DNA of 64,000 bases. Source: Escherichia coli. Lineage in GTDB: Bacteria > Pseudomonadota > Gammaproteobacteria > Enterobacterales > Enterobacteriaceae. The translations under genes and the position numbers were made by a program. The stretch lies in the NCBI RefSeq assembly GCF_013315695.1, contig NZ_CP054353.1; one strand, written 5' to 3'. The notes beneath the pieces are model-generated. The model searched no databases. It worked only from the letters and a program-made list of their open reading frames with translations, and was not told where the DNA came from. Of this stretch, positions 14,381 through 34,268 are shown piece by piece (within the stretch, counting starts at the first letter, position 1; every line of letters begins with the position of its first letter).

Positions 14381-14817
14381 TTCGGGAAGCGCAACGTTCA
14401 GAACTCCCCGCGATCCTCGAACTGTGGCTGGAAAGTACAACCTGGGGGCATCCCTTTATAAAAGCGAATTACTGGCGTGATTGCATTCCGCTGGTGCGGG
14501 ATGCGTATCTTGCCAACGCGCAAAACTGGGTCTGGGAAGAAGACGGTAAGCTTCTCGGTTTTGTCAGCATTATGGAAGGCCGATTCCTCGCAGCAATGTT
14601 TGTCGCACCGAAGGCCGTCAGACGCGGTATTGGTAAGGCGCTAATGCAGTATGTGCAGCAGCGCCATCCCCATCTGATGCTGGAGGTTTATCAAAAAAAT
14701 CAACCGGCGATAGATTTCTACCATGCGCAGGGTTTTCACATTGTCGACTGCGCATGGCAAGATGAAACCCAACTGCCCACCTGGATTATGAGCTGGCCGG
14801 TGGTTCAAACGCTGTAA
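14377..14817 (+). CDS. yiaC: GNAT-family N-acetyltransferase YiaC
   Basis: 146 aa; start overlaps the tag stop (ATGA). Confidence 0.9.
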
Positions 14818-17114
14818 GTGTCAGTTCCGGACCGTTGTATTTTTCCAGCCATGCCAGCGCCGTATTACCCGCACAGCCATTCCCCAGCCGCGAGCTGGGG
14901 AGATCTTTGGTCAGCACGTTCACTGCGCCGTTTTTACAAATGCCGTCAGCGGTTAAATCCAGATCTGGCCATGCGCCTTCGTGAATACAAATCACGCCAG
15001 GTTTAATTCCCTCGCTAATGACCGCGCCGGCAAGAATTTGCCCGCGTGAGTTCCACAGCCGAACAGTATCGCCATCTTGTATGCCGCGCGTCTGGGCATC
15101 GTCAGGATGAATGGTGACAGGCTCACGGTTTGCCACCGCGTACAATTCGCGCAGAGAACTGTAATTCAGCTGGCTGTGCAGACGATGTGCCGGATGAGCA
15201 GAAAGTACCTGCAACTGTTCCGGTTCGGCATTGCCCTGCCATTCGTCCGGCTCCAGCCACATTGGATGCCCCGGGCAATCCGGATAAGCGTAATCAGCAA
15301 TACGCTGCGAGAAGATTTCAATCTTGCCGCTGGCGGTTTTTAATGGATGCGCCTGCGGATCGCGGCGAAAATCGGCGAAGCGAATAAACCGCTCGCTGTC
15401 CGGGTTTTCCGGCATCTCAATTAACTGGTTGGCTTCCCATAACTCAGCAAATGGCGGCAATTCAACCTGCTGGCTTGCCCCGCGCTGCCGGGCAACGTTA
15501 TAAAACGTTTCCAGCCATTGCAGCTCACTTTTTCCTTCCGTAAACCGCGCATAGCCGCCCTTCTCCCAACGTTCACTCAACTCGGCAAAGACATCAAAAT
15601 CATTACGCGCTTCATAACGTGGAGGCACCACTTGCTTCATCGGCACCAGATGCTGATTACTGTAATCGCCGGTCATGGTGAGATCATTACGCTCAAACGA
15701 AGTGGTCGCAGGCAGAACGATATCCGCGTGTTTCGCCGCAGCCGTCCAGAAGCATTCAGAGATCACCACCAGCTCCGGTTTTTGCCAGGCACGGATCAGG
15801 CGATTGGTATCCTGATGATGAGTAAAGTTGGCACCGCCCGCCCACCAGATAAAACGAATATCCGGGAAATGTCGGTCCATACCGTTATGTTGATATGCGC
15901 CACCAGGGTTTTCCAGTGCTTCAACAATGCGGGCGACAGGGATTTTATCTACCGCATCGGTGCCACCCGGCAAGCTGCCCTGCATGGAAGAGAGCACCGC
16001 AGCGCGTGGGGTTACCACCATTGGCAAAATGGTAAGAAAGACCAAAACCGCCGCCGGGTGTGCCGATTTGCCCCAACATTGCCGCCAGCGTGACGATCAT
16101 CCAGTGCTTTTGCTCGCCAAACTGTTGACGTTGCATTCCCCAGCCAGCCATCAGCATGGTGGTATTTTGATGGAAAAGAGCCGCCAGTTCGCGGATTTTC
16201 GCTGCGCCAACACCACAAATCTCTGCCGCCCATTCGGCGTTTTTCGCTATACCGTCACTCTCGCCCAGCAAATAAGAGGCGAAGACGGCATAACCTGTGG
16301 TGCAACGCGCCAGAAACGCTTCGTCGTGCCAACCATTTTCCACCAGCGTATGGGCGATCCCCAGCATCAACGCAACATCGGTGCCCATGTGCGGAGCCAC
16401 CCATTCCATTTTATCGCCAAAGAAATCGACGGTTTCCGATCGCATTGGATCAATGCAGATCAGCTTTTTCCCGCTGTCACGCAGTGCGGAAAAGTAAGAA
16501 AGCCCCTGCTCATCGGATGCATTCCACGCAATTTTCAGCGTATTGAGTGGGTTAGCACTCCACAGCACCACGACATCGCTATGTTCCAGCACCAGCGGCC
16601 AACTGGTTTGCTGTTGATAAACTTCGCTGCCCCCCACGACATACGGCATGATCGCCTGTGCCGCGCCGGTCGAATAATCCCCCAGATGCCCAGTATAACC
16701 GCCTGCCAGCGCCATATAGCGTTGTAATAATGTCGAGGCCTTATGCAGCACGCCGTTTGAACGCCAGCCGTAGGAACCCGCAAAAATCGATGCCGGACCA
16801 TAAGCCTCACGAATGCGTTTATGTTGATGGTGAATAAGCTCCAGCACCTCATCCCAACTCACGCGAACAAATTCATCCTGCCCACGAATGCCTTGCGGAT
16901 TTTCCGGTGACGCAAGAAAGCCTTTGCGCACCATTGGAAATCGCACCCGCGTATTGCTGTGAACCTGGTCGCGAACCGCGCTCTGCAAGGAGTTTTCCAT
17001 TCCTGTGGCTAACGCGCCACGCGAGCTAAACACGGTTTCGCCGTCGGTTTCAACCAGCATAGGCCCCCAGTGGGCGGCAGTCAGAACGGAATATCGTGAG
17101 GATGAGTTGGCCAA
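14786..17114 (-). pseudogene. bisC: Biotin sulfoxide reductase BisC, reading frame disrupted near 16001-16008
   Basis: Two overlapping ORFs (15945..17114 N-terminal part, 14786..16045 C-terminal part) together cover a molybdopterin oxidoreductase; total span 2329 nt is not a multiple of 3. Confidence 0.7.
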
Positions 17115-17266
17115 ACCGAAGACTCCTGAAAGGTTAGATGTATTGAGCAGTTAAATATTACTTACAAATTTCCGAGTATTCCCAGGAATAATCTTCATGT
17201 TCACGCGGCATAATCTCCCGCCACGGAACCCGTGGCAAAGAATAAAAAGGTTATTAAGGATTAACA

Positions 17267-17926
17267 ATGAAGAAACGTGTTTATCTTATTGCCGCCGTAG
17301 TGAGTGGCGCTCTGGCGGTATCTGGCTGTACAACTAACCCTTACACCGGCGAACGCGAAGCAGGTAAATCTGCTATCGGCGCAGGTCTGGGCTCTCTCGT
17401 TGGCGCGGGTATTGGTGCGCTCTCTTCTTCGAAGAAAGATCGCGGTAAAGGCGCGCTCATTGGCGCAGCAGCAGGCGCAGCTCTGGGCGGCGGCGTTGGT
17501 TATTACATGGATGTGCAGGAAGCGAAGCTGCGTGACAAAATGCGCGGCACTGGTGTTAGCGTAACCCGCAGCGGGGATAACATTATCCTCAATATGCCGA
17601 ACAATGTGACCTTCGACAGCAGCAGCGCAACCCTGAAACCGGCGGGCGCTAACACCCTGACCGGCGTGGCAATGGTACTGAAAGAGTATCCGAAAACGGC
17701 GGTTAACGTGATTGGTTATACCGACAGCACGGGGGGGCACGACCTGAACATGCGTCTCTCCCAGCAGCGTGCGGATTCCGTTGCCAGCGCGTTGATCACC
17801 CAGGGCGTGGACGCCAGCCGCATCCGTACTCAAGGCCTTGGCCCGGCTAACCCAATCGCCAGCAACAGCACCGCAGAAGGTAAGGCGCAAAACCGCCGTG
17901 TAGAAATTACCTTAAGCCCACTGTAA
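17267..17926 (+). CDS. yiaD: OmpA-family lipoprotein YiaD
   Basis: 219 aa, lipobox LAVSGC, glycine-zipper region and OmpA C-terminal domain. Confidence 0.95.
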   Translation: MKKRVYLIAAVVSGALAVSGCTTNPYTGEREAGKSAIGAGLGSLVGAGIGALSSSKKDRGKGALIGAAAGAALGGGVGYYMDVQEAKLRDKMRGTGVSVTRSGDNIILNMPNNVTFDSSSATLKPAGANTLTGVAMVLKEYPKTAVNVIGYTDSTGGHDLNMRLSQQRADSVASALITQGVDASRIRTQGLGPANPIASNSTAEGKAQNRRVEITLSPL

Positions 17927-20197: not shown

Positions 20198-20488
20198 ATG
20201 GAATATAAAGATCCAATGCATGAGCTGTTGAGCAGCCTGGAACAGATTGTTTTTAAAGATGAAACGCAGAAAATTACCCTGACGCACAGAACAACGTCCT
20301 GTACCGAAATTGAGCAGTTACGAAAAGAGACAGGGTTAAAAATCGATGATTTCGCCCGGGTTTTGGGCGTATCAGTCGCCATGGTAAAGGAATGGGAATC
20401 CAGACGCGTGAAGCCTTCAAGTGCCGAACTAAAATTGATGCGTTTGATTCAAGCCAACCCGGCATTAAGTAAGCAGTTGATGGAATAG
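20198..20488 (+). CDS. yiaG: HTH-type (XRE-like) transcriptional regulator YiaG
   Basis: 96 aa with helix-turn-helix region; synteny. Confidence 0.9.
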   Translation: MEYKDPMHELLSSLEQIVFKDETQKITLTHRTTSCTEIEQLRKETGLKIDDFARVLGVSVAMVKEWESRRVKPSSAELKLMRLIQANPALSKQLME

Positions 20489-21322: not shown

Positions 21323-21382
21323 TCCCAGCCTCCTGTGTTGATTTCCAACGAGTAAGAGGCTAACCTTATGGTGTTCAGGCAT
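21170..21382 (-). CDS. mokA: Mok-like in-frame N-terminally extended reading frame overlapping hokA
   Basis: 70-codon ORF in frame with hokA, as in mok/hok pairs; its upstream region is interrupted by IS150 within about 16 bp. Confidence 0.45.
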   Translation of the reverse strand: MPEHHKVSLLLVGNQHRRLGMPQKYRLLSLIVICFTLLFFTWMIRDSLCELHIKQGSYELAAFLACKLKE

Positions 21383-21423
21383 AGGGTAGCCTCACTTTGT
21401 ACTGACCCCAGAAAGTTGGACAG

Positions 21424-22275
21424 TTAAACACGAGGCATATAGGTCTGATTCCGATATTCAATTGGAGTCAGACCTTTTAATTTCAGGCTAATTCTTCTGC
21501 TGTTGTAGTATTCAATATATTCCGTAACAGCATCCTTCAGCTCGCTTATATTACTGAACTCATCAAGATAAAAACACTCCGACTTTAAGGTTCCAAAGAA
21601 ACACTCCACCACAGCATTATCCAGACAATTGCCTTTTCTGGACATGCTTTGTTTAATACCATGTTCTTTAAGGATATTTTGATATCTTCTCATACGATAC
21701 TGCCATCCCTGGTCAGAGTGCAGAACAGGATGCTCGTGAGGATTAAGCTTTTTGAATGCCTGATCGAGCATATTCTCGACCATGTTCATCACTGGTCTTT
21801 CCGAAAGGCTGTAAGAAATAACTTCGTTGTTGAAGAGATCTATTACTGGAGACAAATACAGCTTGCGCCCATTGACTGCAAATTCAGTAACATCGGTAAC
21901 CCACTTCTCGTTTGGCCGCGTAGCCTTGAAATCTCTTTGGAGAACATTGGGGGCGGTTTGCCCTACCTCTCCTCTGTAAGAGCGGTATCGCTTGACCTTA
22001 ATCGCTGCCTTCAGTGAGAGGATTCCCATCAGGCGCTGAACAGCTTTATGGTTAATCTGTTTCCCTTCTCGATGAAGAGACAGCGTTACCCTACGGTATC
22101 CGTATCGGCCTCTATTCTCATGATAAATCTCACCAATACGCTTTTTAACGTCCGCATACTTGTCAGGCTTGCTGAGAGCCTTTAGATGGTAATAAAACGT
22201 ACTGCGCGGTATCTCCGCAGCCCTGAGAAGCTCATCAAGAGGATAAAACTGCCTTAGCTCGTTGAGTACTTTCAC
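21424..22275 (-). CDS. insK: IS150 OrfB (InsK), DDE transposase catalytic domain
   Basis: 283 aa rve-type integrase core; expected to be expressed as an OrfAB fusion by -1 frameshifting. Confidence 0.95.
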
Positions 22276-33088: not shown

Positions 33089-34268
33089 ATGTTTACTAAA
33101 CGTCACCGCATCACATTACTGTTCAATGCCAATAAAGCCTATGACCGGCAGGTAGTAGAAGGCGTAGGGGGAATATTTACAGGCGTCACAATCGGAATGG
33201 GATATTTTCATTGAAGAAGATTTCCGCGCCCGCATTGATAAAATCAAGGACTGGTTAGGAGATGGCGTCATTGCCGACTTCGACAACAAACAAATCGAGC
33301 AAGCGCTAGCTGATGTCGACGTCCCCATTGTTGGGGTTGGTGGCTCGTATCACCTTGCCGAAAGTTACCCACCCGTTCATTACATTGCCACCGATAACTA
33401 TGCGCTGGTTGAAAGCGCGTTTTTGCATTTAAAAGAGAAAGGCGTTAACCGCTTTGCTTTTTATGGTCTTCCGGAATCAAGCGGTAAACGTTGGGCCACT
33501 GAACGCGAATATGCATTTCGTCAGCTTGTCGCCGAAGAAAAGTATCGCGGAGTGGTTTATCAGGGATTAGAAACCGCGCCAGAGAACTGGCAACACGCGC
33601 AAAATCGGCTGGCAGACTGGCTACAAACGCTGCCACCGCAAACCGGGATTATTGCCGTTACTGACGCCCGGGCGCGGCATATTCTGCAAGTATGTGAACA
33701 TCTACACATTCCCGTACCGGAAAAATTATGCGTGATTGGCATCGATAACGAAGAACTGACCCGCTATCTGTCGCGTGTCGCCCTTTCTTCGGTCGCTCAG
33801 GGCGCGCGGCAAATGGGCTATCAGGCGGCAAAACTGTTGCATCGATTATTAGATAAAGAAGAAATGCCGCTACAGCGGATTTTGGTCCCACCAGTTCGCG
33901 TCATTGAACGGCGCTCAACAGATTACCGCTCGCTGACCGATCCCGCCGTTATTCAGGCCATGCATTACATTCGTAATCACGCCTGTAAAGGGATTAAAGT
34001 GGATCAGGTACTGGATGCGGTGGGCATATCACGCTCCAATCTTGAGAAGCGTTTTAAAGAAGAGGTGGGTGAAACCATCCATGCCATGATTCATGCCGAG
34101 AAGCTGGAGAAAGCGCGCAGTCTGCTGATTTCAACCACCTTGTCGATCAATGAGATATCGCAAATGTGCGGTTATCCATCGCTGCAATATTTCTACTCTG
34201 TTTTTAAAAAAGCATATGACACGACGCCAAAAGAGTATCGCGATGTAAATAGCGAGGTCATGTTGTAG
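33089..34268 (+). pseudogene. xylR: xylR (AraC-family xylose operon activator) with +1 frameshift in a G-run at 33167-33171
   Basis: ATG at 33089 reads MFTKRHRITLLFNANKAYDRQVVEGVG then a stop after 42 codons; the rest of XylR (ORF 33423..34268 plus upstream codons) is in the +1 frame. Confidence 0.75.

Follow-up and report, generated by a model that had tools for sequence, protein, structure and literature searches.

The question raised by this locus is whether bisC, the gene for the biotin sulfoxide / free Met-S-sulfoxide reductase, is truly broken in this Escherichia coli, and if so by what change, whether an active enzyme could still be made from it, and what its loss means. The DNA analyzed, here called the window, is a single stretch of 64,000 nucleotides, and the features discussed are collected in Table 1. 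Patterns detected lead us to hold with high confidence that bisC is a true pseudogene, passed down in a single clone, that arose by loss of one CGCGC unit and leaves a truncated product. Relatives carry the gene intact in a single frame, the indel is not a multiple of three, and the lesion is real.

The window contains no single continuous bisC open reading frame (ORF) of about 777 amino acids; the ORF listing gives instead two ORFs in separate frames, which share 101 nt at 15945-16045. Searched against the NCBIfam profile TIGR00509 (bisC_fam, 772 positions), the N-terminal ORF matched positions 1-363 with 523 bits and the C-terminal ORF positions 362-768 with 553 bits, and the two are therefore halves of one bisC. 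Each fragment scores only about half of the curated cut-off of 1017.55 bits, but homology across both fragments together spans the whole profile of roughly 772 positions. The original prediction had placed the two halves of the gene in different frames overlapping around 15945-16045, over a span not divisible by three, and both points were confirmed, the span of 2329 nt leaving a remainder of 1. The gene order yiaD-bisC-yiaC-tag is kept, which confirms the orthologous position. The window gene is like that of E. coli BisC (TIGR00509, DMSO reductase family) in its yiaD-bisC-yiaC locus, its TTG start and its Shine-Dalgarno sequence, and is unlike it in that the frame is broken after codon 371 and translation begun at the bisC start does not include the MGD-binding domain.

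Table 1. Features of the bisC locus and of the xyl region, in window coordinates
Feature	Position	Strand	Remark
bisC pseudogene, biotin sulfoxide / free Met-S-sulfoxide reductase	14786..17114	-	2329 nt, intact 2334 nt
Shine-Dalgarno AGGAG, 8 nt upstream of bisC TTG	17123-17127	-
bisC start codon TTG	17112..17114	-	PGAP start is the same in intact orthologues
N-terminal bisC ORF, 389 aa	15945..17114	-	ORF listing
C269T (Ala90Val) in bisC	16846..16846	-	sole other derived change in the window's lineage
Surviving single CGCGC unit, the deletion junction	16002..16006	-	alignments
Out-of-frame tail, 18 codons and premature TAA (15945-15947)	15945..16001	-
C-terminal bisC ORF, 419 aa	14786..16045	-	ORF listing
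Native C-terminal bisC coding part, shifted to frame +1 with respect to the start	14786..16001	-
xyl destruction region	28180-31852		stepwise
IS1 in xylG	28488-29255
ISEc45 splitting xylG	29823-31264
xylR	33089-34268	+	+1 G in a G4 run at ~33163-33167, frameshift after codon 27

With 5 nt missing, translation from the TTG start would give 371 native residues followed by 18 wrong ones and a stop at 15945. In intact BisC, Pfam places Molybdopterin_N (PF18364) at 12-52, Molybdopterin (PF00384) at 56-517 and Molydop_binding (PF01568) at 636-741. All three domains are still encoded in the window's bisC DNA, but not on one polypeptide: the N-terminal product retains PF18364 and positions 1-234 of the 353 of PF00384 and has no PF01568, while 14786..16001 encodes the last third of PF00384 and the whole of the MGD-binding domain (PF01568). 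The break falls inside the Molybdopterin domain and not between domains. BisC itself is without a solved structure, and the closest solved structures are Haemophilus influenzae MtsZ (7L5I) and the Rhodobacter DMSO reductases (PMC8166771); these are single-chain enzymes and were aligned over essentially their full length. With the MGD-binding domain and the last third of the Molybdopterin domain lost, the truncated product would not be expected, judging by how domains are arranged in the DMSO reductase family, to bind Mo-bisMGD or to act on either biotin sulfoxide or free Met-S-sulfoxide as a reductase.

An active enzyme might still be made if ribosomes shifted to the +1 frame at 15945-16006 or if the two halves assembled as a split enzyme. 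The extent of the frame overlap gives room for this, as a +1 shift within it would yield a near-native protein two residues short, and gene callers do give a 399-aa C-terminal ORF from an ATG at 15985. We nevertheless regard such rescue as very improbable. Between 15973 and 16045 the downstream frame offers ATG, GTG and TTG codons, none of them preceded by a Shine-Dalgarno sequence, so that the C-terminal half has no ribosome-binding site of its own; inspection of the useful part of the overlap found no known +1 slippery or stimulator motif; and the position of the split within a domain also speaks against it. A programmed recoding site would moreover be conserved, but this arrangement occurs in 2 of 5,426 complete genomes, and every relative whose bisC was read here or carries an annotation has it in a single frame. 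The evidence is better explained by a pseudogene whose product ends at the premature stop.

A second concern, attached as a caveat to the original prediction, is that the frameshift could be a sequencing or assembly error in a gene that is really intact. When the bisC region was compared by megablast with 5,426 complete E. coli genomes, 5,422 proved to contain bisC; two records match over 2551 bases at 100%, and the next-best over 2556 bases. A 91-mer across the junction was matched over its full length at 100% by two complete genomes only, MSB1_4I from a rectal swab in Australia and AF3 from a blood culture in the UK, and the junction was absent in 5,418 of the 5,420 matching complete genomes. 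There were three records with at least 99% identity to the 91-mer, two of them with full coverage; the third presumably comes from a genome whose bisC is damaged in another way and matches only in part. PGAP annotates bisC as 'frameshifted', with the same ends, in NZ_LR898874.1 (JMX41_RS00920) and NZ_OZ547117.1 (AC9VVF_RS17010), and these RefSeq pseudogenes are identical to the window's bisC including the junction and the 2329-nt span. Outside bisC the window is unlike both records in its SNPs at 695-930 and 20328, its xylFAB deletion and its extra G in xylR, and it represents a third distinct sequence, with 12 substitutions in the ldr region and one at 20328.

The allele also extends well beyond complete genomes. 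Exact look-up in NCBI, ENA and Logan found 509 contigs with the 389-aa product, out-of-frame tail included, and 585 with the C-terminal fragment of 399 aa; the former is indexed in 908 blocks, metagenome assemblies included, and E. coli KTE143 is among its carriers. Two metagenome contigs (L008 and L009) share the junction, L009 with three further bisC substitutions, and cluster variants P0011-P0013 of the truncated product show extra amino-acid changes, from which it follows that the allele has diversified since its origin. The GC-rich character of the repeat would favor an error, but the loss is a clean 5-nt unit with no homopolymer miscount, the identical junction occurs in two independently sequenced genomes from different countries and in a window that differs from both, and the truncated product is found on contigs of many submitters and in metagenomes. 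An error in place of an intact gene is scarcely credible on this evidence, and for the allele as such the independent genomes and contigs exclude it; the earlier caveat was not borne out. Because only 2 of 5,426 complete genomes carry it, the allele marks one clone. It is already annotated in public records and is not new, and our search of the literature found no described bisC frameshift in E. coli and nothing relevant on MSB1_4I or KTE143.

The nature of the lesion is given by comparison with intact relatives. Aligned with the intact bisC of MS 21-1 and IAI39, the window shows one contiguous 5-nt gap and zero other indels; bisC of AF14 is likewise intact, and the window shows the 5-nt gap against it also. 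In all three strains the gene is 2334 nt in a single frame, coding for 777 aa plus the stop, and the window's bisC DNA is 99.7-99.9% identical to that of the nearest relatives. MS 21-1 reads CCCA-CGCGC-CGCGC-TGCGG where the window reads CCCA-CGCGC-TGCGG, and the nearest relatives, MS 21-1 and AF14, both carry the perfect CGCGC-CGCGC repeat. The window has a single CGCGC unit rather than CGCGCCGCGC, and which 5 nt of the repeat were lost is ambiguous. When CGCGC was put back in silico, a 2334-nt ORF was recovered that runs without interruption for 777 aa, and this repaired BisC differs from that of MS 21-1 only by A90V and G121D and from that of AF14 at A90V and L144Q. The A90V change is missing from all three intact relatives compared (MS 21-1, IAI39 and AF14).

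This alignment is the check that had been proposed with the original prediction, and together with the PGAP 'frameshifted' flags it supports the view that the interruption is a loss-of-function change. The predicted location, a GC repeat near 16001-16008, also stands; the predicted size of the loss, 2 nt, does not, since 5 nt are missing, and neither does the predicted length of 777 codons, as the restored gene codes for 777 aa plus the stop and has 2334 nt and not 2331 nt. A 2-nt loss is permitted by frame arithmetic alone (-2 and -5 are equal modulo 3, which is why the earlier frame logic worked), but it has next to no chance of being correct when intact orthologues are all 2334 nt against 2329 nt in the window and the alignment opens a single 5-nt gap.

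Loss of a whole repeat unit suggests how the deletion may have come about. The ancestral allele would have read CCCA CGCGC CGCGC TGCGG, a two-unit repeat over the Thr370-Arg371-Arg372-Ala373 codons, and one CGCGC unit would have been lost from it, most simply through slipped-strand mispairing in replication. Judged from the repeat structure this is the simplest mechanism, and another route to a 5-nt deletion is possible. The change is like a Streisinger-type slipped-strand deletion in that two perfect units became exactly one with the site otherwise unchanged, and unlike it in that the tract is minimal, with 2 units of 5 nt and no long microsatellite; the event is therefore rare and in practice one-way, and with one unit left, simple slippage is unable to reverse it.

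The repeat is itself restricted within the species. Approximately 1,062 of 5,420 genomes contain the identical intact 96-mer around CGCGC-CGCGC; the perfect repeat is missing from about 80% of E. coli. Among sampled genomes, IAI39 and O157:H7 read CGCGG-CGCGC at this site, and RM9387, A11 and PEC165 read CGCGG-CGTTC. A synonymous change of CGG to CGC at Arg371 thus made the tandem repeat perfect in a subset of E. coli, and this in turn made the 5-nt deletion possible. The idea that the repeat is a phase-variable (contingency) switch of bisC, prompted by a change in unit number within a coding region, can be given practically no weight, as the ON state would have two units and the OFF state one that is unable to slip back, no alleles with three units or other numbers were seen in the relatives examined, the OFF allele is fixed over hundreds of assemblies of the clone and has gained further substitutions, the perfect repeat is missing in most of the species, and the locus has neither a long tract nor reversible unit-number variation. 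What the repeat records is more plausibly a single unit loss that was then inherited.

There were several other, independent inactivating lesions of bisC in other lineages of E. coli. We read 40 of the 114 members of the 90% BisC cluster for other truncations. Two (P0002 and P0014) have frameshifts 15-30 codons upstream of the window's site, one (P0008) has a frameshift about 30 codons downstream, and two (P0009 and P0010) end at a stop codon directly behind Met379; the frameshifts among these proteins follow ...GQIGTP, ...MIVT and ...EALE. These alleles are unlike that of the window in site and mechanism, and none of those examined is a change in CGCGC units. A mutational hotspot at the CGCGC repeat was considered and rejected, as the other truncated alleles break elsewhere and no recurrence was found in the 40 of 114 cluster members read. 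In strain 2013C-3264 (locus L014) a deletion of about 1.2 kb fuses the 3' end of yiaD to bisC. The deletion endpoint is the 12-nt TTCTGCGGTGCT, which is found in yiaD antisense at window 17867-17878, and ten nucleotides of the endpoint, CTGCGGTGCT, lie directly 3' of the bisC CGCGC site at window 15993-16002. This looks like a microhomology-mediated deletion, and it may share its end spot with the window's lesion by chance. Taken across E. coli, bisC appears to have been lost repeatedly, and independent losses are consistent with weak selection on the gene.

The original prediction had set the bisC lesion beside damage to the xyl genes as a sign of ongoing pseudogenisation. The xyl damage is confirmed, but decay beyond the ordinary sense of the term is not, since in the near-identical strain MSB1_4I the only pseudogenes that PGAP flags in the 64-kb stretch are bisC and xylG. 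The xyl locus of the window is thoroughly inactivated, with xylG split by both ISEc45 and IS1. Compared with MSB1_4I, about 4.7 kb is gone from the window, comprising xylF, xylA and xylB together with the 5' fragment of xylG and 34 nt from the beginning of yiaB. The deletion junction, at 28487/28488, coincides exactly with one end of this IS1, and we therefore read it as an IS1-adjacent deletion. Recombination between two IS1 copies was rejected as its source: the IS1 in yiaB of AF3 is absent in the window and has the opposite orientation. The extra G in xylR is not present in MSB1_4I or MS 21-1, and could mean either that a regulator no longer of use is truly decaying or that a homopolymer was misread in sequencing. 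The closest relatives with bisC intact also have xyl intact and carry private lesions of their own: AF14 has wecH::ISKpn26 and a frameshifted yiaB, while in MS 21-1 the lesions are yhjV::IS1A and a stop in bcsG. What the window displays is ordinary lineage-specific decay by insertion sequences and small indels, unlike the genome-wide decay of the Shigella-like type.

Two further observations concern the same stretch. An IS150 copy adjoins hokA at window 21359-22909 and is common to MSB1_4I, AF3, AF14 and MS 21-1; its insertion therefore predates the lesions in bisC and xyl. Within the first 28 kb of the window, 12 of the 13 substitutions relative to MSB1_4I are clustered in about 235 bp at 695-930, and most likely the same clustering applies relative to AF3. 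This segment is a tandem array of ldr (type I toxin) repeats, and the cluster points to gene conversion among the copies or to a difference in how the repeats were assembled.

As to why bisC can be lost, published work describes BisC as a cytoplasmic Mo-bisMGD enzyme that reduces free Met-S-sulfoxide beside MsrA, MsrB and MsrC in methionine sulfoxide homeostasis, and that also reduces biotin sulfoxide (PMC7402097, PMC10083560, PMC8166771, each citing Ezraty et al. 2005). Its loss is probably tolerated through redundancy with the Msr enzymes, because these cytoplasmic enzymes, to judge from the literature, also reduce methionine sulfoxide, and because salvage of biotin sulfoxide is needed only in special conditions. 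Loss could instead be adaptive and not neutral, with convergent selection against a cytoplasmic Mo-bisMGD enzyme. Fixation of the deletion in a widely sampled, human-associated clone of more than 500 assemblies could reflect such selection, as could the independent truncations of bisC at other sites and in other lineages; the clone's assemblies include blood and gut isolates from several countries. We consider an adaptive loss improbable, and if it were so the benefit might be, for example, molybdenum cofactor saved or an unwanted reduction avoided.

The case is of little importance beyond annotation. It also illustrates that a synonymous change set up the repeat that enabled the deletion. As the junction CCCACGCGCTGCGG occurs in only 2 of 5,426 complete genomes, it can conveniently serve to mark the clone. 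For strains of the clone, neither salvage of biotin sulfoxide nor reduction of free Met-S-sulfoxide via BisC is predicted to be possible, and this predicted loss could matter for oxidative-stress phenotypes.
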